The position numbers were made by a program, and so were the translations under genes. This document shows, in pieces, positions 16,256 to 31,051 of a stretch of DNA of 31,259 bases. Origin of the DNA: a virus (taxonomy: Duplodnaviria; Caudoviricetes); IMG/VR virus record IMGVR_UViG_3300032324_000227, positions 1 through 31,259 of that record; one strand, written 5' to 3'. Within the stretch, counting starts at the first letter, position 1; each line of letters opens with the position of its first letter. The notes beneath the pieces were generated by a model, which was given only the letters and a program-made list of their open reading frames with translations, searched no databases and was not told the origin of the DNA.

Positions 16256-16331
16256 TATACATAACAACAGCCCCGCTTGAGATAGCATCTCTTGCCCGAC
16301 AACCCCCGATCTCTCGGGGGTTGTTTCTTTT
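16256..16331 (+). ncRNA. Candidate ~65-nt small RNA between a TATACATA motif and an intrinsic terminator
   Basis: Late-promoter-like motif, internal hairpin GAGAT/ATCTC, then terminator. Could simply be a 3' UTR. Confidence 0.35.
16299..16331 (+). terminator. Rho-independent terminator
   Basis: ACAACCCCCGA-tctc-TCGGGGGTTGT followed by TTCTTTT. Confidence 0.85.
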
Positions 16332-16335
16332 GGAG

Positions 16336-16343
16336 TATAAATA
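16336..16343 (+). promoter_or_regulatory. T4 late promoter TATAAATA
   Basis: Exact consensus upstream of SD AAGGAG. Confidence 0.75.
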
Positions 16344-16363
16344 GTGGAAAGGAGACATACTCT

Positions 16364-17149
16364 ATGAGAAACTTAATCGCGTCGGTGGCATCGCTCTTTG
16401 TAATGACTTCTGCCTTAGCACAGACAAATCCAAATGCAAAAATAAACCTAGAAGTAGTTGCACCTGAGACGGCAGTTGCAGTCGGTGAAACTTTCGAAGT
16501 GCCAATTATGATGGTGGCTGCGACCGAACCACAGAGATACCTCGTTTCTGACATCATCTTTGGTTGGGATCAAACCAAACTTCAATTTACTGGATTGAAC
16601 CATGTCGGTTCTCATCCACTGATATGGGTTCCACCAAGTGGAATGCCATGTCCTGCTGGATATGTAAATTGTCAGGGTATCGGTGGAGACTACACTTTGA
16701 TCAACGAAGCAATTCCACCAGCAGATGGCAACGGACTATACTACGGATACGGTGCGCTTGGATATGTCTTCATGGTGAATCTAGAACCAGTTCAGATCGT
16801 TCGCTTACGGTTCAAGGTTCTTCAACCATTTGTAGAGACTCAGATAAGAATTCTTCCACAGTTCACCACCACCGTTAACAACCAACCACTCGTCAACAAG
16901 ACTGTGGTTTATGGAAGCAATATTCCTGGTCTTTCGGTCCTTGGAACCATCACCGATGCAGTCATCACGGGTGTTCCTCAGAACATCGTTGGAGACATTG
17001 ATGGAAATGGTTCAGTAGGCTCGGAGGACATGGCAATGCTCCTTGCAGCATGGGGAACTCAGTCCTTCAACAGCAATCCTGCCGACCTCAACGGCGACGG
17101 AACCGTGAACTCGCAGGATCTAGCCATCCTCATCACGAACTGGTCATAA
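16364..17149 (+). CDS. Secreted cohesin-like plus dockerin (duplicated EF-hand) protein
   Basis: Signal peptide ending ALA-Q; cohesin-like VAVGETFEVPI...WDQTKLQF...IVRLRFKV; dockerin GDIDGNGSVGSEDMAMLLAAWG / ADLNGDGTVNSQDLAILITNW. Confidence 0.8.
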   Translation: MRNLIASVASLFVMTSALAQTNPNAKINLEVVAPETAVAVGETFEVPIMMVAATEPQRYLVSDIIFGWDQTKLQFTGLNHVGSHPLIWVPPSGMPCPAGYVNCQGIGGDYTLINEAIPPADGNGLYYGYGALGYVFMVNLEPVQIVRLRFKVLQPFVETQIRILPQFTTTVNNQPLVNKTVVYGSNIPGLSVLGTITDAVITGVPQNIVGDIDGNGSVGSEDMAMLLAAWGTQSFNSNPADLNGDGTVNSQDLAILITNWS

Positions 17150-20825: not shown

Positions 20826-20836
20826 AACTCTCCTCT

Positions 20837-20866
20837 AAAGACAGAGGGGGTCGAAAGACCCCCTCT
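20837..20866 (-). terminator. Hairpin, probable (weak) terminator
   Basis: AGAGGGGGTC-tttc-GACCCCCTCT then GTCTTT on the - strand. Confidence 0.6.
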
Positions 20867-20867
20867 T

Positions 20868-20922
20868 TGATCCCTCGCGTTTGGTGTAAGGCTCGGATCA
20901 CCTCCTAATGTGCGAAGGATCA
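20868..20922 (-). ncRNA. Stem-loop displaying AGGAGGUGAUCC (complement of the 16S rRNA 3' end) with no downstream start codon
   Basis: 11-bp stem (20868-20878 / 20912-20922) with one G-U pair on the - strand; the loop holds the 12-nt motif. Confidence 0.6.
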
Positions 20923-21045
20923 CTTGTTCCAGGGAAACTTCTTGGATGCCCAATCCCAAAGTGGCTTGCCGATGAAAGCACCAGCAGTAAAGACCACTAG
21001 AGTATAAAAGATTGTTCCAAGAGTGCTAGAAAGAAATAGTTCCAT
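20920..21045 (-). CDS. 41-aa single-TM peptide MELFLSSTLGTIFYTLVVFTAGAFIGKPLWDWASKKFPWNK (not in the ORF track)
   Basis: Strong SD TAAGGAG and late promoter CATAAATA at 21065-21072; hand translation. Confidence 0.8.
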   Translation of the reverse strand: MELFLSSTLGTIFYTLVVFTAGAFIGKPLWDWASKKFPWNK

Positions 21046-21072: not shown

Positions 21073-22297
21073 TCTTACGGAATCTGGACGATAGTTGATT
21101 AATCGCTGAAAAGCCAGATCTATCAACGATTTTATAGAAATTATCATTTTTTGGATCAATAACAACAAAGCCTTCTGAACTGAACGGAGACAGACCGCCG
21201 TCCTCGCCTCGCTGAAAGGTAGTCAAGCCCTTGTATCGCTCTAGAACCTTCAGGACGATCCGTTTAACGGGCTGCACGACCGCGTAGAGTCCAAGCACAG
21301 CGTCGATAGACTTCATGCCGTCAATCTCTTTAAGGGTCGCCTGAGCCTTCTGGCGGCGTTTCTCCTTGCCAGCCTCGGACTTTAACTTATCAATTTCCTT
21401 CTGCTCCTTGCCCTCGACAAAGGTCTTGAAGGCAGATTTTGTCAATACCCCACCGCCACGGGTGTAGGCGGTGACAGCAAACGACTTGAGCATTGGGGCA
21501 AGAGAAGATTTTGCAATCTTGTTTATATCGGCGGCTTTGATAAATTTCACCGAAGCGAGAATCTGCTTGTGAGCATCCATGAAAGCCTTGTAGTTTGGAT
21601 CACAAGTATCAGGCTTCTGTATGTCAATTACAGGCGAGATGAGATAGAGAGTGTTTGTCTTTCTGGTGTTCGGAACACTCTTTAAGATCTCGGCACGGAA
21701 CGATCCACCAACTTGCTTGTAGTGGGTGTGGATTGCAAATCCCATGTTGTAAGTTGAGAAGCCCTTCATCTCGGCAGGGACGGCGTAGACAACCGTATTT
21801 GGTTGGAATGTAATGTAGTCTCTGCCTCCAACCTTTACACGCTCAAGCATCTTCTTTGTGAAGAGCATGTCTCCCTGATACACGCCATCAACTCCAATAG
21901 CCTTTAGTTCGTCAAAGGCTACCTTCAGGGTATGGGCTAGGTCTGGTTTGTCGCCAAACAATGAGTCGATCTCGGCGTGGCTCTTTGGAGCCTTACGAGC
22001 CTGTGTAAAGAATGACTTTGTGGAAACAAAGAATTTGTTGTCTAAAGGATCTAAACCAAAGACAATAGACGGTGCGCCGTCGATCTTCTCAGAATACTTT
22101 AGTTCCTCTCCCTTGCCACAACCTTCAAAGAAACTCTTCTTGATTCGCTCTAGAATCTGTAGCATCTCTTTGATGCCTTCGTGACCCTTGTTAAACATAA
22201 GATCTTCGAAATGCTCCATGTGAAGGTTCAAGCCCTCATTTGGTGCGGCGGATTCTTTTAAGGTAATAAATGCTCTGAAATCTAGAATGTTTGACAT
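21068..22297 (-). CDS. DUF6267-like protein with ATP-dependent RNA-ligase-type motifs
   Basis: NLHMEHFED; motif I KIDG, motif III-like YQGD, motif IV EGFVV, motif V KIV. Start reassigned to 22297. Confidence 0.7.
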   Translation of the reverse strand: MSNILDFRAFITLKESAAPNEGLNLHMEHFEDLMFNKGHEGIKEMLQILERIKKSFFEGCGKGEELKYSEKIDGAPSIVFGLDPLDNKFFVSTKSFFTQARKAPKSHAEIDSLFGDKPDLAHTLKVAFDELKAIGVDGVYQGDMLFTKKMLERVKVGGRDYITFQPNTVVYAVPAEMKGFSTYNMGFAIHTHYKQVGGSFRAEILKSVPNTRKTNTLYLISPVIDIQKPDTCDPNYKAFMDAHKQILASVKFIKAADINKIAKSSLAPMLKSFAVTAYTRGGGVLTKSAFKTFVEGKEQKEIDKLKSEAGKEKRRQKAQATLKEIDGMKSIDAVLGLYAVVQPVKRIVLKVLERYKGLTTFQRGEDGGLSPFSSEGFVVIDPKNDNFYKIVDRSGFSAINQLSSRFRKT

Positions 22298-22300
22298 GGT

Positions 22301-22313
22301 ATACATATTTATA
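22301..22313. promoter_or_regulatory. Overlapping divergent late promoters: TATAAATA (-, 22306-22313) and ATACATA (+, 22301-22307)
   Basis: Short gap between divergent genes starting at 22297 (-) and 22325 (+). Confidence 0.6.
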
Positions 22314-22324
22314 TTGGAGGAATC

Positions 22325-22552
22325 ATGCACAAGTCAGCAAAAGTTTTAGGAGCAAGCACATCAGGAACTATCCGCGCTCAAGCGTTAACAATCATCGCCA
22401 GTGGTGGTGCGGGTGGATGCACCTTTATTGGATTTTCTGATGGAGTTACTTTCGGTTTTGCCATCCCATCAGGTGCTGTCGTAAATCTTGATGTGGCTGT
22501 TTCGGGTGCATACACTATTGGGGCAAACACGACTGTGATTGCCAGAGGTTGA
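22325..22552 (+). CDS. Small Gly/Ala-rich hypothetical (beta-type, possibly virion) protein
   Basis: SD GGAGG at correct spacing; 38-nt convergent overlap with the exonuclease gene. Confidence 0.6.
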   Translation: MHKSAKVLGASTSGTIRAQALTIIASGGAGGCTFIGFSDGVTFGFAIPSGAVVNLDVAVSGAYTIGANTTVIARG

Positions 22553-23210
22553 TCGCCTCGCGGAGTTTAGGAACCCAATCCTTTGGGTCTTCAATAAACT
22601 CCTGAACGATTCCCTCCTCGGTAGAGATCAAGATCACAATTTGCTTTACAGGTATTCCTGTTCGCTCCTGCCACATTATCGCATAAGCAGTAGCCTGAAG
22701 AAAATAGTTTTCTATATCTTCAGGCTTCTTTGCTTTTGTGGAACCTTTGAAATCTACAATAGATAACTTTCCATCGTAGTCAGAGATGAGATCGACTCGT
22801 CCTGCCAACTCTAGGAGATCGCTCCAGAGCGGTGTCTCTTGAGCCACCACATTGTCTATCCGTCTGTCGATGTAGGGGCGCATCTGCTTAAAGAGGTCTA
22901 GGACGGTCGCTGAAAGGTTCTCGTCTACGAGTCCGTTAGAGTCTGTCGTGGTGGCATCCACGCCCTTGCCCTCCATATACCGCTCTACGAGGCTATGCAG
23001 GGCTGTGCCACGGGCTGTCACCCGCTGCGACTCTTTTGGATTTTTCTTTCGCCACTCAGCGAAGAATTTGTTCTTTTCAAATCCTACTACTGTTGTAACG
23101 GAGGGATATCTTTTTCCATCGGGAGTAAGATAAAAACGCTTTCCGTTTTCCTCTACAGATTTTGCTTCATCAATCTTTTTAAGATTGTAAGTAAACTTTT
23201 TCATTTCCAT
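22515..23210 (-). CDS. Cas4/RecB-like PD-(D/E)XK exonuclease
   Basis: YPSVTTV, RGTALH, AGRVDLI, IVDFK, QATAYA. Confidence 0.88.
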   Translation of the reverse strand: MEMKKFTYNLKKIDEAKSVEENGKRFYLTPDGKRYPSVTTVVGFEKNKFFAEWRKKNPKESQRVTARGTALHSLVERYMEGKGVDATTTDSNGLVDENLSATVLDLFKQMRPYIDRRIDNVVAQETPLWSDLLELAGRVDLISDYDGKLSIVDFKGSTKAKKPEDIENYFLQATAYAIMWQERTGIPVKQIVILISTEEGIVQEFIEDPKDWVPKLREAINLWQSQSCLPQ

Positions 23211-23226
23211 AACGAAAACTCATTTC

Positions 23227-23523
23227 TCAGACAACTTCTACAATCACTTGGTTCACACCCAACTTCTTCTTTGTCGCCTCAACTACTCTCTGTGTGGTTG
23301 TCTGTTCTTTCAGAGAAATAGTCTGTATTGTATTCATACCAGCGGCTTGAAGTTTACCTTTATAAATCTCAGCATCTCTCAGATTGTCGAAAACCGCAAC
23401 ATGGGCTTTTCGCGCCTCAGTCAGAGAGGCTACCGCATAACCAGAAATCTTATCATTTGGTTTCATGGCAGACACTCCAGTATACCGTTCACTTAAAGTT
23501 TGTTCAAGGGTTATCTTATTCAT
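23227..23523 (-). CDS. Hypothetical protein
   Basis: ATG 23523 lies just after a CATAAAT late-like motif. Confidence 0.55.
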   Translation of the reverse strand: MNKITLEQTLSERYTGVSAMKPNDKISGYAVASLTEARKAHVAVFDNLRDAEIYKGKLQAAGMNTIQTISLKEQTTTQRVVEATKKKLGVNQVIVEVV

Positions 23524-23695
23524 ACCATTTATGTAGGCATTTGGTAGGGACAAACAAGCCGTAAGTAACTGATGATCCTATGAAAACACACGCCCCCGTA
23601 GGGGGTCCAAATATCGGCAAGCAATACATAAGATATAGAAAACCTCTGCGGTGCTGTAACACCCAGAGGCATGGCATAGAGAGAAAGGACAATCC

Positions 23696-24208
23696 ATGCA
23701 TACTATCTATCTCGTCCGCAAGGATGATAAACCCGTTTATGTCGGGTATACTAGCAGATCCGTTGAGAAACGCTGGCAAGAACATATCTGCGATTCCAAT
23801 AAACCAAAGTTCCCGTTGCACCATGCTATCAATAAGCATGGTGCGGATTCGTTCACCATAGAAATGTTATACGAGTCCGATGACGAATATCACACACTCA
23901 ACCATATGGAGCATCATTACATCTGGCTCTACAGGACACACAAGAGTTTAGGTGGGTATAATGTTACCGTAGGTGGGGAAGGATGGTCGAAGGGTTTGAG
24001 TGAGAAACAGCGAAATGACAGGGAGAAGGCTCGAAAGAGAGCATGGAGAAAAGCCAACAGGGATTACTTCGAAAACAATAAGAACAAAATAAAGGCACAG
24101 AGAAAGGCTCGGTATAAAGCGGACAAGGAGAAATGGAAAGCAGTGGGAAGAAAGGCTTACTATGAAGACAAAAAAGGGTCTGTGGATTTTCTCCACAGAC
24201 CCCGGTAG
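23696..24208 (+). mobile_element. Free-standing GIY-YIG (Seg-like) homing endonuclease gene
   Basis: TIYLV...YVGYT...RWQEH...E...GYN with a basic tail; opposite strand to its neighbours; upstream ATACATA motif and hairpin CCTCTG.GGTG/CACC.CAGAGG. Confidence 0.85.
24170..24202 (-). terminator. Strong Rho-independent terminator
   Basis: GGGTCTGTGGA-gaaaa-TCCACAGACCC followed by TTTTTT on the - strand. Confidence 0.85.
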
Positions 24209-24318
24209 CGAAATTCCGTGTCGGGGGCTATGACCTCCACCAACGCGCGGTGAATAGCGTAACGACGCTTGCACCGTCCCCACGACCGACTCAGTGAGAA
24301 GAACGGGGGCGAACACTA
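24170..24318 (-). ncRNA. Structured ~145-nt RNA antisense to 23S rRNA domain IV (H70/H71/H67/H64/H61 region)
   Basis: + strand 24204-24299 aligns collinearly to recalled 23S ~1929-2015. TATACATA at 24320-24327 and the terminator are both on the - strand; several hairpins. Confidence 0.7.
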
Positions 24319-24350
24319 TTATGTATATCCAAAAAATTTTCAAGATTTAT

Positions 24351-24752
24351 TTAAAAATTTTTTGAAGACCGATAAAAGTCTGAATTGTGAAAATTCATTT
24401 TCACAAAACCTTCATTTGTGGTGTAGTGGATCGTATCAAAGACCGTTAGACACCAGGGAAGGCACTTGTCACAGGGACGCGAGATACGCATCTCTCCGTG
24501 AGAATTGAAACGGCAGTTAAAGAGATGCAGATCCTCGCGAGGCTCACACTTGATCAAGGCATCAAGTTCAGAATGCATCTCTTCAAAGAGATACCCATAC
24601 TTTCTAGCAAGCGGATGGGTCTTGAAGCGGTTAGTTCCGACAGAAACAATTTTACCCTTGCAAACAATGATAGAAACATGCTTCTTGCTGCGATCTATCT
24701 TTTTACAGGTTTCTGCGGCAACTTTGAGTATTTTGTCGATGTCGGCTCTCAT
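24351..24752 (-). CDS. Zn-dependent cytidine/deoxycytidylate deaminase-like protein
   Basis: HSE and SRPCDKC motifs. Confidence 0.8.
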   Translation of the reverse strand: MRADIDKILKVAAETCKKIDRSKKHVSIIVCKGKIVSVGTNRFKTHPLARKYGYLFEEMHSELDALIKCEPREDLHLFNCRFNSHGEMRISRPCDKCLPWCLTVFDTIHYTTNEGFVKMNFHNSDFYRSSKNF

Positions 24753-24775
24753 ATTTCGGAATTTTCACAATCAAG

Positions 24776-24849
24776 CACACCTGGCTGGATTCGAACCAGC
24801 GACAAACGGATTAGAAATCCGTTACTCTATCCAACTGAGTTACAGGTGC
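24776..24849 (-). tRNA. tRNA-Arg(TCT)
   Basis: Full cloverleaf; ACGGA-TTTCTAA-TCCGT; TTCGAAT T-loop; no CCA. Confidence 0.95.
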
Positions 24850-24856
24850 GTATAGG

Positions 24857-25003
24857 TTAAGACTTCTTCGGCTTCTTCTTACTCGTAGGCTTCAACTTCT
24901 TGATCTTGCCCTTACCAAAGATTCTATTCCAATTCTCATCCCACTTCTTCTGATCTACAGGACGATACGAGTCGCCCTTTCCTGCTCCGTGTTGTCCTTC
25001 CAT
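24857..25003 (-). CDS. Small basic hypothetical protein (GKGDxxRPVD...W.RIF family)
   Basis: SD GGAGG before ATG 25003. Confidence 0.7.
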   Translation of the reverse strand: MEGQHGAGKGDSYRPVDQKKWDENWNRIFGKGKIKKLKPTSKKKPKKS

Positions 25004-25017
25004 ATTTCCTCCAAGCG

Positions 25018-25046
25018 AAAGGGGAGGGAGCCGTAGCCCCCTCCCC
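25018..25046 (-). terminator. Terminator-like hairpin with cUACGg tetraloop
   Basis: GGGGAGGGGGC-tacg-GCTCCCTCCCC then TTT. Confidence 0.7.
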
Positions 25047-25064
25047 ACGCACCCAAGCCACCGA

Positions 25065-25370
25065 TCAAAGAGTGTAGTTGATGAAGTTGTGGACATCCGC
25101 AGGGTCCACGGTCGGATTCACAAGCAGGACGCGCTTCATGCTGTAGCGAGTGCTGCCGTTCTGAGTCTCCTCAGTCACGATCCGCCAGTTGCCACGGTTC
25201 TCAACGAGCGACTTGATCGAAGAGATCATCGCACGGAAGTTCTTGATACCGAAACGACTACGGGCTTCGGCAGCGGTAAGCGAGTTACCGTTGGCGAGGT
25301 AGTTGATCGCCTTGCGCTTCTTCGTAAGGCTTGCGGACGAGGACGAACGATTCTTGGTGCTGATAGCCAT
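25065..25370 (-). CDS. Winged helix-turn-helix DNA-binding protein
   Basis: YLANGNSLTAAEARSRFGIKNFRAMIS pattern; own promoter and terminator. Confidence 0.75.
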   Translation of the reverse strand: MAISTKNRSSSSASLTKKRKAINYLANGNSLTAAEARSRFGIKNFRAMISSIKSLVENRGNWRIVTEETQNGSTRYSMKRVLLVNPTVDPADVHNFINYTL

Positions 25371-25455
25371 TCTGAAAAATTCCTTTGCTGATGAACACTT
25401 TGTATGAGTCTGTCGAGCCATCAGCAACTCGCAGCACTCTCAACTAGATGACCAT

Positions 25456-25484
25456 AGTATACAGTTGAACTAGGTCTGTGTCAA
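25456..25484 (-). promoter_or_regulatory. Sigma70 promoter TTGACA-17-TATACT
   Basis: Near consensus with extended TG. Confidence 0.8.
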
Positions 25485-25503
25485 GTAGTTTATGCACTTT
25501 ACT

Positions 25504-25713
25504 CTAAAAATACTCGGAGTAGTCGCGCCCATAACGGTTGATTCTCTCGTTCGGAGACATCTGCTTGAGTTCTTCTACAGGATCTATGCCAAAAATTCTT
25601 TTTCTTGTATCGGGATGCAAATTGAACAGAGACAGATCGAATTCCAATCTGTCATCTGTAGTTTTTTTATGGTTTGAATCGTTGTGCAACCAACGATCAC
25701 TAGAACTGCTCAT
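25504..25713 (-). CDS. Hypothetical protein (paralog of 25710..25907)
   Basis: Shared C-terminal PVExL..MS..ERI..YGRDY.E. Confidence 0.7.
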   Translation of the reverse strand: MSSSSDRWLHNDSNHKKTTDDRLEFDLSLFNLHPDTRKRIFGIDPVEELKQMSPNERINRYGRDYSEYF

Positions 25714-25907
25714 TTTTGTGGATTTAGAAATTCTTCGTAGTCTCGACCATACATGTCAATTCTTTCTTGAATCGACATTGCACGAAGATCCTCTACAGGA
25801 TTGTAACCAAGTTCAGAAACAATTTCTTCGGGCTTCATGGTAAAAAGATTTTCATCAAACTTACACTTGCCCTTGAACGAATTCATCCATGCTGTATAAA
25901 AACTCAC
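25710..25907 (-). CDS. Hypothetical protein (paralog of 25504..25713)
   Basis: SD GGAGG before GTG 25907; shared motif as above. Confidence 0.7.
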   Translation of the reverse strand: MSFYTAWMNSFKGKCKFDENLFTMKPEEIVSELGYNPVEDLRAMSIQERIDMYGRDYEEFLNPQK

Positions 25908-25908
25908 T

Positions 25909-26436
25909 TTAGTTACCTCCACCTACAATGAATGGTCTGTTCTTGAGACGAGACTTGAAATCTCCCTTTTCAATTTCAGGTCCAGACTTCAGTCCTGCGC
26001 CACCGATACGCGCTCTCTTGCCCTTTGGAACCCAATCAGACTTGCCTGTGCCGTGGAACACGCTACCGTGCTTCTTGGAGACAGAGAGAACGGTGTCTTG
26101 TCCATGCTCTGAACCGTGCTTCTTGAGATCGGCAAGCATCTTTGCATGATCAGATGAGTGAACCATGAAAGACTTTTCCTTTACTTTCTTCTGACCGCCA
26201 GCCTGTGTCTCAATATACTCACCCTTCACAGGAACAGGAGCATAGCCGTGCGCTCGTAGACTGGCGCGTAGAGCCTTCGTGCGCTTGTTGTTCTCGGCAG
26301 GGCTTAATTCGCCACGGCTAGCCGATACGAAGCCAACCATCTTGCCACCCTCAATGTGACCGTGAAGGCGGGATAGCGACCTACGGGCTGCTTCTATGAG
26401 TTCTGCTTCTTCTCTGATCTGCTTAAAGTCTTTCAT
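25909..26436 (-). CDS. Conserved phage protein with MKDFKQ..EE N-terminus (probable packaged protein)
   Basis: SRL..H...GFVSASR...EN..R...GEYIE...EKSF...QDTVL pattern; late promoter at 26455-26462. Confidence 0.65.
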   Translation of the reverse strand: MKDFKQIREEAELIEAARRSLSRLHGHIEGGKMVGFVSASRGELSPAENNKRTKALRASLRAHGYAPVPVKGEYIETQAGGQKKVKEKSFMVHSSDHAKMLADLKKHGSEHGQDTVLSVSKKHGSVFHGTGKSDWVPKGKRARIGGAGLKSGPEIEKGDFKSRLKNRPFIVGGGN

Positions 26437-26457
26437 GCGATTCTCCATTTATCTTAT

Positions 26458-26916
26458 TTATGGAAACAACTTACTTCTCTGTCCATAACCAATCTTGTTG
26501 GAACCGAACATTCGCATGAGTTCTGCTCCCGTCCAAAAACAAACTTTAATTTTCGGAAATTCTGTAATATCAGTGAAACAATAGGATGTGTGCGCGGCAT
26601 GAGCCACGAATTCCTTAATGTCCACTTTTCTACCCACACCGATCATTCCTGAAGGTGCGTAGTTTGCTCCGCGTTTAGTGAACGCCTTTTGGTCTATCTT
26701 TGCCTCTGTTACTTTGTCAACAAAATCATATCCTTTTGCATCTACAAATTTTAAGTTGGGAAACCAGATTGGAATGTGTATTTCCAAAAATTTAGAGGCA
26801 ACTCTGCCGTCCATAAACAATTCTACTAGTTCTTCTTTTGGTATACTTCCAACTTGAAATGGAGTAAGGTTAAAATCGTAAGTTTTTTTATACTCAATTT
26901 TTGTAATTGCTGCCAT
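26458..26916 (-). CDS. Putative restriction-endonuclease-fold protein
   Basis: E...GYD...IDQK resembles a PD-(D/E)XK catalytic set; late promoter TATAAATA at 26938-26945; SD AAGGAG. Confidence 0.45.
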   Translation of the reverse strand: MAAITKIEYKKTYDFNLTPFQVGSIPKEELVELFMDGRVASKFLEIHIPIWFPNLKFVDAKGYDFVDKVTEAKIDQKAFTKRGANYAPSGMIGVGRKVDIKEFVAHAAHTSYCFTDITEFPKIKVCFWTGAELMRMFGSNKIGYGQRSKLFP

Positions 26917-26937
26917 ATCTACTCCTTGAGATATGGA

Positions 26938-26945
26938 TATTTATA
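26938..26945 (-). promoter_or_regulatory. T4 late promoter TATAAATA immediately after tRNA-Gln
   Basis: Exact consensus. Confidence 0.7.
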
Positions 26946-26946
26946 A

Positions 26947-27017
26947 CTGCCCGACTTGGATTCGAACCAAGACATGGAGGACCAAAATCTCCAGTGCTAC
27001 CATTACACCATCAGGCA
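26947..27017 (-). tRNA. tRNA-Gln(TTG)
   Basis: Cloverleaf TGCCTGA/TCGGGCA; A-C mismatch closing the anticodon stem; no CCA. Confidence 0.93.
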
Positions 27018-27021
27018 ATAA

Positions 27022-27231
27022 TCACAAAAGCCCGTTTTCCTCATCAAACTTAGCAATCCTGTCCATGGCGTAATTGCTGAGTTCTTTTTGAGTTTCCTTG
27101 AGTTTCCTCTGAAGTTCCATGATCTCCCCATATGCGTCCCCAATCAGAATGAGGACATCCTCGGGAAGGTCCGTGCGCTTGGTGGCGACGCGAAGGCGAT
27201 AGTCGATATGGTCTTCGTCATCTTGCCACAT
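27022..27231 (-). CDS. Hypothetical coiled-coil protein
   Basis: Stop/start overlap with the upstream PEP-CTERM gene. Confidence 0.6.
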   Translation of the reverse strand: MWQDDEDHIDYRLRVATKRTDLPEDVLILIGDAYGEIMELQRKLKETQKELSNYAMDRIAKFDEENGLL

Positions 27232-27857
27232 TACTTACTCCTTCTTCGCCTTCCAACCGCACCAGCAACCGCAAGCAGGGCAAGCGCGGATGGTGCAGGA
27301 ACCACTGCGTATTCGATGTTGTCGATAGCGAGATGAGAACTAAATGTATTGGTGTAGATTTTGATCTCTGTAATGTTGTTAAGCGGACCAGGATATCCAG
27401 AGGAGATGTTTAGTTTTACCCGCTGTGCTGCTGTGAGTTGTGTAGTATAGGTAAACACACCCTCCCCGTATCGGTATCCCTCTATAACTACTGCGGTCGA
27501 ATTCCAAACTGATGTGACTTCAATGCTGTTGAGAATCCAAAGATCATCACGACGAATGCGGTAGTTCTTATTCTGCTCAGAACCCCACGGGGTGAACAAA
27601 GCACGATCCCCGATGATTCCCTCATCGTATCCTCCGTATCCTTGACCACCTACGAGATCGTAGTATCCCCATTGGAAGTTGCCTTGGGAAGATGAACTTG
27701 TGAAGTGGAATCCCTCGTATGAGGAGAGGTAATCCCAATAGAATCCCGTGGTAGCGGAACTCATACTAGGAATGGTGGGAGCAGGAAGATTCTCAAAGGT
27801 GCAGAGACTTCCGTGTGCTGCCGTTGTGATAAATGCTGTTGCGATTAGTGTCTTCAT
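27231..27857 (-). CDS. Secreted PEP-CTERM-type (VPAP variant) surface protein
   Basis: Signal peptide ending AHG, then CTFE; C-terminal IDNIEYAVVPAPSALALLAVAGAVGRRRRSK. Confidence 0.88.
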   Translation of the reverse strand: MKTLIATAFITTAAHGSLCTFENLPAPTIPSMSSATTGFYWDYLSSYEGFHFTSSSSQGNFQWGYYDLVGGQGYGGYDEGIIGDRALFTPWGSEQNKNYRIRRDDLWILNSIEVTSVWNSTAVVIEGYRYGEGVFTYTTQLTAAQRVKLNISSGYPGPLNNITEIKIYTNTFSSHLAIDNIEYAVVPAPSALALLAVAGAVGRRRRSK

Positions 27858-29461: not shown

Positions 29462-29731
29462 TTAACCATTAAGAATCTGGAAACTTGCATTGAACGAACT
29501 CACCGATTCAGGACGGAATGAGCGAAAAGCACCAGCCTCAACATCCCAAACAACAATGTTGTCGCCTGTTCGCGGTGGAGCATTCTCATTCAAAACCTGT
29601 TCACGCTTCGGCAAGTAAGTCTCATTCAGAGTGCAGCGCATCTTTCGCTGCGAACCATCCATCTTTGTGAAGATCACTTCACAAATTCCACGGTGAAGGT
29701 TCTCAACCATCTGTTCTCGCGTTTGAGTCAT
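29462..29731 (-). CDS. SH3/Sm-like beta-barrel (WYL-2/DUF2693-like) protein
   Basis: VIFTKMDGSQRKMRCTL...VWDVE..AFRSFR; SD AGGAG. Confidence 0.8.
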   Translation of the reverse strand: MTQTREQMVENLHRGICEVIFTKMDGSQRKMRCTLNETYLPKREQVLNENAPPRTGDNIVVWDVEAGAFRSFRPESVSSFNASFQILNG

Positions 29732-29750
29732 TTGTTTCTCCTGTGTGTAG

Positions 29751-29779
29751 AGTATAGCGTTTGTTGTCTGCGTTGTCAA
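29751..29779 (-). promoter_or_regulatory. Sigma70 promoter TTGACA-17-TATACT
   Basis: Near consensus. Confidence 0.8.
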
Positions 29780-29784
29780 GTAGG

Positions 29785-30081
29785 TCAATCGTCTTTTTCT
29801 TTGACGCGATAACCAATCTTCCACAAGACATCTGCAATGGTGCTAGCAGTCTCTAATACTGCCTCTTCTGCCAACTCAGGACGAACCGCATGAATCGTTT
29901 CGTGTATGAGTGTATCAAGAAGGTCTTTGTTTTTTGCGTTTCTGTTTACCCAAATTTCTGGATTTGAAACAGACGGATCGTCACACTCGCCCCAAGAATT
30001 TCGGGACATTTGTGAAGAGTTTACGAGACAGACTCGCCACTCTTTATGGTTGATCTTTGTTCGTATCTGTTTCTCTTTCAC
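29785..30081 (-). CDS. Small HExxH metallopeptidase-like protein
   Basis: WGEC...IWV...DTLIHETIHA...E; GTG start after GAGG. Confidence 0.7.
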   Translation of the reverse strand: MKEKQIRTKINHKEWRVCLVNSSQMSRNSWGECDDPSVSNPEIWVNRNAKNKDLLDTLIHETIHAVRPELAEEAVLETASTIADVLWKIGYRVKEKDD

Positions 30082-30592: not shown

Positions 30593-31015
30593 TTAGTCGA
30601 TGTGCTTTTCAACCTTGTCCCAATAGCCTTCAGTCTTGTCGGACTTGAAGCCATTCGGTCCACCATTGTGAATCCTAGCCATGTCTTCATAGGTAGGCGT
30701 GGAACCGATCCGTCGAGTCGTAGCGTAGCGATTCAGATACGCCACGACAACACGCTCTGCGTAGGCACGGTTCATGCAGTCCTTGTAAGATCCTCCAATC
30801 GAAGGATCAAACTCAACCGCATCTTCCCAATAGCACTTGTGAATTTGGTATGGACCAATTGCCTTTCCACGATCTCCGATGAGATTCTTGCCATCAGAGG
30901 ATTCAACCATACGGATTGCGTCGAGAAGCGGACGAATCTCTGTTGCGGTGATCCGCTGCTTCTGTGCAGGAGGCGTGAGGGTGAGAACCGTTGAGATGAG
31001 AATAGTGGTGAACAT
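30593..31015 (-). CDS. i-type (destabilase-like) lysozyme with signal peptide
   Basis: VESS..., GD.G.AIGPYQI...YWEDA, ARIHNGGPNG; hydrophobic N-terminus. Confidence 0.85.
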   Translation of the reverse strand: MFTTILISTVLTLTPPAQKQRITATEIRPLLDAIRMVESSDGKNLIGDRGKAIGPYQIHKCYWEDAVEFDPSIGGSYKDCMNRAYAERVVVAYLNRYATTRRIGSTPTYEDMARIHNGGPNGFKSDKTEGYWDKVEKHID

Positions 31016-31022
31016 GTTGATC

Positions 31023-31051
31023 ATCATACACTATATCGAACACTCTGTCAA
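31023..31051 (-). promoter_or_regulatory. Sigma70 promoter TTGACA-17-TATGAT; probably gives a leaderless lysozyme mRNA
   Basis: ATG 31015 lies 7 nt after the -10. Confidence 0.7.

Follow-up and report, generated by a model that had tools for sequence, protein, structure and literature searches.

The stretch of DNA analysed here (31,259 nucleotides; hereafter, the window) comes from the genome of a T4-like phage and encodes a family B polymerase, UvsX, a helicase, a primase, and a ribonucleotide reductase and carries seven tRNA genes. Between a GIY-YIG homing endonuclease gene (positions 23696–24208, plus strand; PF01541 and phrog_314) and an unnamed open reading frame (ORF) of 133 amino acids (24351–24752, minus strand), the minus strand holds a predicted RNA gene. 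Its transcript would be approximately 145 nt long (24170–24315; fold z-score −2.65) and antisense to positions 1929–2012 of 23S rRNA, with its ends placed by a T4-like late promoter motif (24320–24327) and an intrinsic terminator (24170–24203) that consists of twelve base pairs (24175–24203) and a U tract. The label 'late promoter' is an assumption that we carry over from T4; motifs of the same type recur ahead of several window genes with ribosome-binding sites. The endonuclease gene is convergent with the RNA gene, and its stop codon falls within the 3′ tail of the RNA.

Positions in 23S rRNA are given in E. coli numbering, with helices named to match; the sequences come from the analysis itself. 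The interval 24204–24315 is a near-collinear copy of 23S 1929–2012, with its nearest counterparts in the Phycisphaerales. Two alignments to E. coli given in the original prediction (21 of 22 positions at 24204–24225 and 32 of 48, ungapped, at 24252–24299) are reproduced with deposited E. coli-type 23S, and its pointer to Planctomycetota was well placed: the 48-nt block matches four Phycisphaerales 23S sequences at 38–39 positions, against 32 in E. coli. The 23S gene is the best BLAST match of the element in five of five Phycisphaerales genomes (E-values of 2.2e-9 to 1.3e-4 over 94 nt), and the similarity is therefore beyond chance, in support of the idea of a captured 23S fragment. A covariance search against the Rfam LSU model, once suggested as a check, does not register this resemblance: cmscan against Rfam gives no LSU match for the window element, though BLAST finds 23S, confined to about 94 nt. 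At the gathering threshold of Rfam 15, only a tRNA-Arg passes in the window region, and six relatives of the element have 0 matches. We rejected an rRNA gene, or an rRNA piece bearing a group I intron, on the grounds of the absent LSU match and of a resemblance that spans only about 94 nt and runs opposite to the expression signals. Apart from one match to the 16S tail, described below, rRNA-like matches elsewhere in the window do not exceed chance level.

At 68 compared positions, the window is identical to 17 Phycisphaerales records at 54–60 and to 56 other records at 42–59. G at 23S position 1938 is the allele read by many relatives of the element; a scan of species genomes for this allele gave 120 of about 1500 records, with Planctomycetota in most of the 80 titles among the matches listed. 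Because the closest allele and BLAST matches are to Phycisphaerales 23S, the host is likely a bacterium of this order, an assignment made from rRNA alleles only. Spacer or prophage links to a host are absent among the matches listed for 301 genomes, which include tRNA matches and are accompanied by 358 weaker ones. Two genomes labelled Berkelbacteria (L201) and Singulisphaera (L243) carry a Phycisphaerales-type 23S stretch and are possibly misbinned rRNA contigs.

The element recurs in related phages, a point on which the original prediction had hinged. From viral and metagenome contigs, seven pattern scans gathered 29 distinct full-length cores in 35 distinct contexts, in which the flanking genes of more distant phages are unrelated and no conserved neighbour gene lies beside the family members. 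On the strand complementary to 23S rRNA (minus), all 35 contexts have the late-type motif, 4–5 nt off the conserved 5′ end as at 24320–24327 of the window, and a U-tailed terminator whose stem differs in its letters among contexts, so that the signal is conserved and the sequence is not. On the plus strand, by contrast, one context of the 35 shows the motif and none a terminator. This distribution, which agrees with the claim that expression signals lie on the antisense strand and include a strong terminator, predicts a transcript antisense to 23S rRNA. The cores are 100–114 nt long, with insertions and deletions in all three frames, and a coding role is therefore ruled out. Before counting, we left out true rRNA loci (L036 and L041), chance matches (L428, L437, and L443), and 87 of 120 metagenome matches that lack a second rRNA block; one of the latter (L387), a short element with a terminator, an H71-loop block, and an H67 hairpin, may be another member. 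The invariance of two blocks of the family is partly forced by the search patterns used. An annotated phage collection of 50,697 records contains no carrier: 19 records have matches, all of them 22-nt 23S-type matches and none spanning the element.

Another 27 distinct cores are shorter and pass over H71 with a linker of 4–15 nt; in their 36 contexts the minus strand has the motif in 30 and the terminator in 32. Nineteen of the 27 have no partner strand for H67 and consist of tandem blocks equal to host positions 1927–1944, 1962–1981, and often 1986–2008. Judged from these blocks, such cores cannot adopt an rRNA fold in the sense orientation, and antisense transcripts of them would straddle H71; the missing strand, which a sense mimic would need, thus counts for the antisense reading. 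Other architectures of the anti-23S theme were seen in passing. In five relatives from other phage types (L102, L122, L171, L353, and L413), blocks resembling H71, H67, and H69 are circularly permuted and have alleles that are not of planctomycete type; further arrangements, some with a hairpin on both sides, occur in L117, L167, and L173, in L113 (which has a sigma-70-type promoter), in L145, L148, L332, and L355, and in L418–L458. A diverged member outside the 29-core set (L066) has two hairpins of interest, one that is H71-like and one in which the H69-loop sequence appears.

The minus strand is predicted to fold into four helices that meet in a four-way junction and are followed by a free tail and the terminator. 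Across the alignment, 95.6 per cent of cells pair, 5 of 28 pairs are changed on both sides, and 0 of 500 shuffles reach as high a value; the covariation is modest, and the sequences are related to one another. The closing helix, P1 (5′ arm 24311–24314; partner 24213–24216), is paired in 100 per cent of cells, 13 of which are G–U on the minus strand. Hairpin P2 (24278–24309), the 3′ arm of which complements 23S positions ~1993–2012 (the 3′ strand of H61), has two pairs changed on both sides and a U–G pair in 26 of 28 cores. Hairpin P3 (24248–24276), which bears out the earlier remark that the element folds on itself, complements 1962–1991 (the 3′ strands of H70, H67, and H64) and is 100 per cent paired, with one pair that is G–C in 17 cores and A–U in 10. 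Hairpin P4 (24220–24244), in place of H71, is 85.5 per cent paired and has a U–G pair in nine cores. The 3′ tail (24204–24212), single-stranded and likely a toehold, is the complement of 1929–1937 (the 5′ strand of H70), exact in 26 of 29 cores, with a predicted duplex energy of −13.5 kcal/mol. G–U types occur at 12 of the 28 pairs, the U–G pair of P2 included, and would read as A–C if the plus strand were transcribed; conserved C–A mismatches are present on that strand. Consensus energies from RNAalifold slightly favour the plus strand (−19.0 versus −17.4), one terminal pair reads as G–U in the plus-strand sense in 27 of 29 cores, and sequences folded singly have the better energy on the minus strand in just 20 of 29 cases. 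For this family, the match of the P3 5′ arm to 23S 1829–1836 was discarded as evidence for an rRNA mimic: all but one of its bases reflect collinearity or self-pairing, and the search pattern forced the match.

Three segments that match the host are predicted to be exposed in this fold, with unpaired probabilities of 0.92–0.98 compared to a mean of 0.40: the 3′ tail (0.92), the P3 loop (24261–24264, complement of 1977–1980; 0.98), and the P4 loop (24228–24234; 0.92). For the 23S stretch 1977–1981, which the P3 loop complements, the three commonest Phycisphaerales alleles are found in 8, 5, and 2 of 17 records, and the loop states of the phages are exactly these three (in 11, 10, and 8 cores, the 10 carrying one or two extra bases). 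The loop switches among the host alleles 15 times on a tree that was built without it, which is poorly resolved but has starred branches that force at least 4–5 changes per state; nine pairs of cores no more than two edits apart elsewhere, including the window and its relative L001, differ in the loop. In 12 of 29 cores, this window included, the P4 loop complements the H69 loop in its planctomycete form (1914–1920, with G at 1918) and lies out of collinear order. The 'expanded H71-like hairpin' of the original prediction does stand at the place of H71, but its loop was missed as an H69-loop sequence. An H69 loop with G1918 is present in 86 of 119 scanned host records and absent from E. coli; the predicted duplex with the P4 loop amounts to −8.2 kcal/mol for G1918 and −1.8 kcal/mol for A1918, and the chance that some 7-mer of the target region falls in the P4 loop is about 0.03. 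By a loose pattern, 22 of the 27 short relatives carry the H69-loop block in collinear position. RlmH is reported to methylate N3 of 23S position 1915 on 70S ribosomes (PMC5430550), and this methyl group would block pairing between the P4 loop and H69. RlmH was found in none of 121 genomes of the likely host order, in which G1918 also occurs, and H69 of the lineage may lack the usual methylation.

The original prediction had also read many substitutions as preserving G–U pairing with 23S rRNA. Compared with host alleles, 12 states are wobble-compatible (106 cells), 8 are reverse transitions (31 cells), and 7 are transversions (20 cells), while 1789 of 1946 cells fall within the host allele set. 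The bias is therefore slight, and it is confounded with the RNA's own stems, as most wobble-compatible changes also serve these helices. The G-to-A change in the H67 strand does not belong to this class, being the usual Phycisphaerales allele (13 of 17 records). The clade of the window mismatches 23S at 1943 and 1966.

The copy of 23S, its orientation relative to the promoter and terminator motifs, the conserved minus-strand fold, and the complementarity of exposed parts to host-type alleles are the observations from which an interpretation can be built. We consider it probable, with good confidence, that the RNA pairs with 23S rRNA. In cofolding, the net energy is −68 kcal/mol with host positions 1925–2020 and −50 kcal/mol with host domain IV, whereas shuffles give −9 and the plus strand −6 to −7; the true site is the best among 57 windows. 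These strong values arise because the element is a 23S copy, and they mean no more than that, with naked RNA, the gain from binding can cover the cost of both folds. With domain IV of E. coli, the value is the same as with the host (−50), and the 23S target appears conserved enough for the question to be extended to E. coli.

Our best reading, towards which we lean slightly, is that a late RNA of about 145 nt pairs with free or immature host 50S subunits and stalls domain IV folding and subunit joining. The RNA would be made late from the minus strand and would make first contact by its tail (with 1929–1937), its P4 loop (with the H69 loop), and its P3 loop (with 1977–1981), in the manner of loop-presenting antisense RNAs; the opening of its stems would follow, and with it the invasion of three 3′ strands, those of H67, H64, and H61. 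In what is the least secure step, these strands would be reachable in assembly intermediates and free 50S subunits and far less so in translating 70S ribosomes, so that new ribosomes would be stopped and working ones kept; rRNA trapped in this state may undergo degradation, and its nucleotides may be recycled. Published accounts are compatible with such access: H67–H71 are described as unstable in late 45S (50S-precursor) intermediates, with domain IV slow to mature (PMC3737534), H67–H71 as mobile in free mycobacterial 50S (bioRxiv 2022.08.30.505801), and the H70 loop as single-stranded enough for cleavage by MazF toxins (PMC5408214). Against a block, a late inhibitor of ribosomes could harm the phage's own translation. 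The fullest version of the idea, to which we give slightly less than even chances, is that a captured piece of 23S has been reversed into an RNA-only antibiotic, which grips H69, H70, and the H64 strand by allele-tracking loop contacts, pulls apart the long-range helices by which domain IV is closed, and shuts off 50S production late in infection. Were this true, phages would control the ribosome with RNA and not with proteins alone. The family would show, as a natural map, which rRNA strands are open to invasion in vivo; it could serve to probe the order of events in late 50S assembly and could inform the design of antisense antibacterials directed at rRNA. From the loop alleles, hosts could be assigned to uncultured phages by sequence.

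An RNA that pairs with 23S might also help the ribosome, either by acting for a short time as a chaperone while domain IV folds or by keeping idle 50S subunits in store for late phage translation. U3-type chaperoning exists in eukaryotes, all of the pairing evidence fits this possibility equally, late timing suits a need for ribosomes, and self-masking stems together with the fixed mismatches at 1943 and 1966 could permit release; however, a duplex of a predicted net −50 to −68 kcal/mol would need a helicase, and one carrier genome shows DNA-replication helicases only, so we regard a helper as unlikely, though worth keeping in mind. Masking of a nuclease site, one of the roles proposed originally, fits poorly. 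The RNA would here shield the H69–H70 region from a host ribonuclease toxin or soak up rRNA fragments from such a defence, and such toxins are reported to cleave the H70 loop, which is single-stranded, in the case of both MazF-mt3 and MazF-mt6, and in the case of MazF-mt3 the anti-Shine-Dalgarno tail of 16S rRNA as well (PMC5408214), a tail to which a second candidate RNA of the same phage is complementary. Yet MazF/PemK is found in just 17 of 121 likely-host genomes, 11 cores (that of the window among them) mismatch at 1943 inside the cut motif, the cut site is far from most of the complement, and the 16S-tail RNA was not found in ten other carriers; we deem a shield unlikely. A guide role, also among the original proposals, seems rather improbable to us; the RNA would then direct host RNase III, or else a nuclease or modifying enzyme of the phage, to its site on 23S. 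A long duplex with fixed mismatches resembles a guide design, and the Epstein–Barr virus (EBV) offers a precedent for a virus-encoded rRNA guide (PMC13597479), but neighbour genes are not conserved and no partner enzyme was found: 121 of 153 ORFs of one 86 per cent complete carrier include no RNase III, no RNA ligase, and no family specific to rRNA methyltransferases. Box C/D and H/ACA guides were rejected in particular, as no such family matches over threshold and the alignment has no box-like invariant motif. Among the roles proposed at the outset, a block of 50S assembly thus fits best.

Two further explanations do without antisense pairing. The plus strand could act as a structural mimic or decoy of H67–H71, produced by read-through or by copying of the minus-strand RNA. 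The types represented by L102 and L117 join both H67 strands with H69- or H71-like hairpins in permuted order, and the endonuclease gene of the window has a plus-strand late motif at 23625 with no plus-strand terminator ahead of the element, so that sense read-through is possible in this phage alone. A sense mimic was nevertheless rejected, and we see very little chance for it, given that the family's signals lie on the opposite strand (the plus-strand counts being 1 and 0 of 35), the C–A mismatches of the plus strand are conserved, and H67 cannot form in 19 of 27 short relatives. Copying would call for a reverse transcriptase, and PF00078 is found in 0 of 5 carrier contigs (29–86 per cent complete) and not in the window, a result that also removed a retron or other RT-template RNA from consideration. 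Lastly, the element could be a captured piece of rRNA that has no function and whose similarity to host rDNA is maintained by recombination. Identity to the host genes is high enough that gene conversion could take place, and the host alleles in the P3 loop would then be accounted for as well. This relic explanation, to which we attach the least credence, is already largely refuted by conservation: promoter spacing and terminator are kept across phages with unrelated flanks, the stems covary, the H69 loop is out of order, and the non-host bases that adjoin the P3 loop have not been converted to the host type.

CopA/CopT of plasmid R1 and RNA I/RNA II of ColE1 are, like the phage RNA, folded antisense systems with the complement in loops and a single-stranded tail and with stems that open after contact. 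They are cis-encoded, perfectly complementary, and directed at a plasmid mRNA or primer, whereas the phage RNA is trans-encoded and complementary block by block, with host 23S as its predicted target. The phage RNA presents its host-matching segments in predicted unpaired form, and it has no conserved gene on the opposite strand (GIY-YIG lies beside 2 of 41 contexts). By analogy, it resembles loop-presenting antisense RNAs in its presumable way of working, yet it is a member of none of the parallel systems. Bacterial 23S domain IV, H61–H71 (Rfam LSU_rRNA_bacteria), is the source of the sequence, 60 of 68 positions being equal to the best Phycisphaerales records, but the phage RNA covers only ~85 nt of it, on the opposite strand, and has new local stems and no Rfam LSU match. 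EBV v-snoRNA1 (PMC13597479) is likewise a small RNA of viral origin, reported to base-pair with the rRNA of its host and to disturb the maturation of that rRNA (both predicted for the phage RNA), but it is a eukaryotic box C/D methylation guide that works with host proteins, unlike a box-free, reversed rRNA fragment in a bacterial host; risiRNAs (PMC8450093, PMC7472701) are natural RNAs antisense to rRNA that lower pre-rRNA, but they are short, Argonaute-bound, and derived from the eukaryotic cell's own rRNA, whereas the phage RNA is a stand-alone folded gene; and cyanophage CfrI (PMC9602691) is an antisense RNA of a T4-like phage that adjoins a homing endonuclease gene, but it targets the phage's own psbA, whereas the RNA described here complements host rRNA and has an endonuclease gene beside it only now and then, as a passenger. 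Four tables of a phage RNA catalogue (Fremin et al. 2023; PMC10690425) contain no motif or contig match. In Rfam and in the openly available literature searched, we found no phage or bacterial RNA that base-pairs with 23S; the Fremin 2023 alignments (PMC10690425) and the Weinberg 2017 supplement (PMC5737381) may contain the motif without annotation.

Two river metatranscriptomes compared with positions 22000–27500 leave the element without read cover. For a relative (L014), one 201-nt contig from run X2 spans the promoter and 95 of 111 core bases with no mismatch; it comes from one study, is unstranded, and may be DNA. Run X1 covers only the upstream gene of this relative, and runs X3 and X4 give nothing.

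The GIY-YIG gene is a passenger. A close relative of the window (L001), with flanks 94–98 per cent identical, has no such gene, and its terminator survives in the window as a remnant at ~23583–23605; with the insertion, the RNA gained a new terminator. A related gene flanks L024, for a total of two among 41 contexts (five of the 41 have less than 320 nt of flank). The 133-aa ORF has no Pfam match and 111 unnamed homologues, and it was dismissed as a partner gene, not being a constant neighbour; a deaminase-like pattern (HxE and PCxxC) was noticed by eye in its L001 homologue. The second candidate RNA (20835–20935, minus strand; fold z-score −4.56) follows a late ORF of 41 codons and is closed by a strong hairpin. 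Over 12 nt (20895–20906), with no start codon after them, it is exactly complementary to the 3′ tail of 16S rRNA; it is present in two close relatives, in which the complement is invariant. Elsewhere, the window encodes a dockerin-domain protein (16292–17149), an S-adenosylmethionine lyase (25909–26448), an Sm-like WYL_2 protein (29462–29824), and a destabilase (30593–31027).
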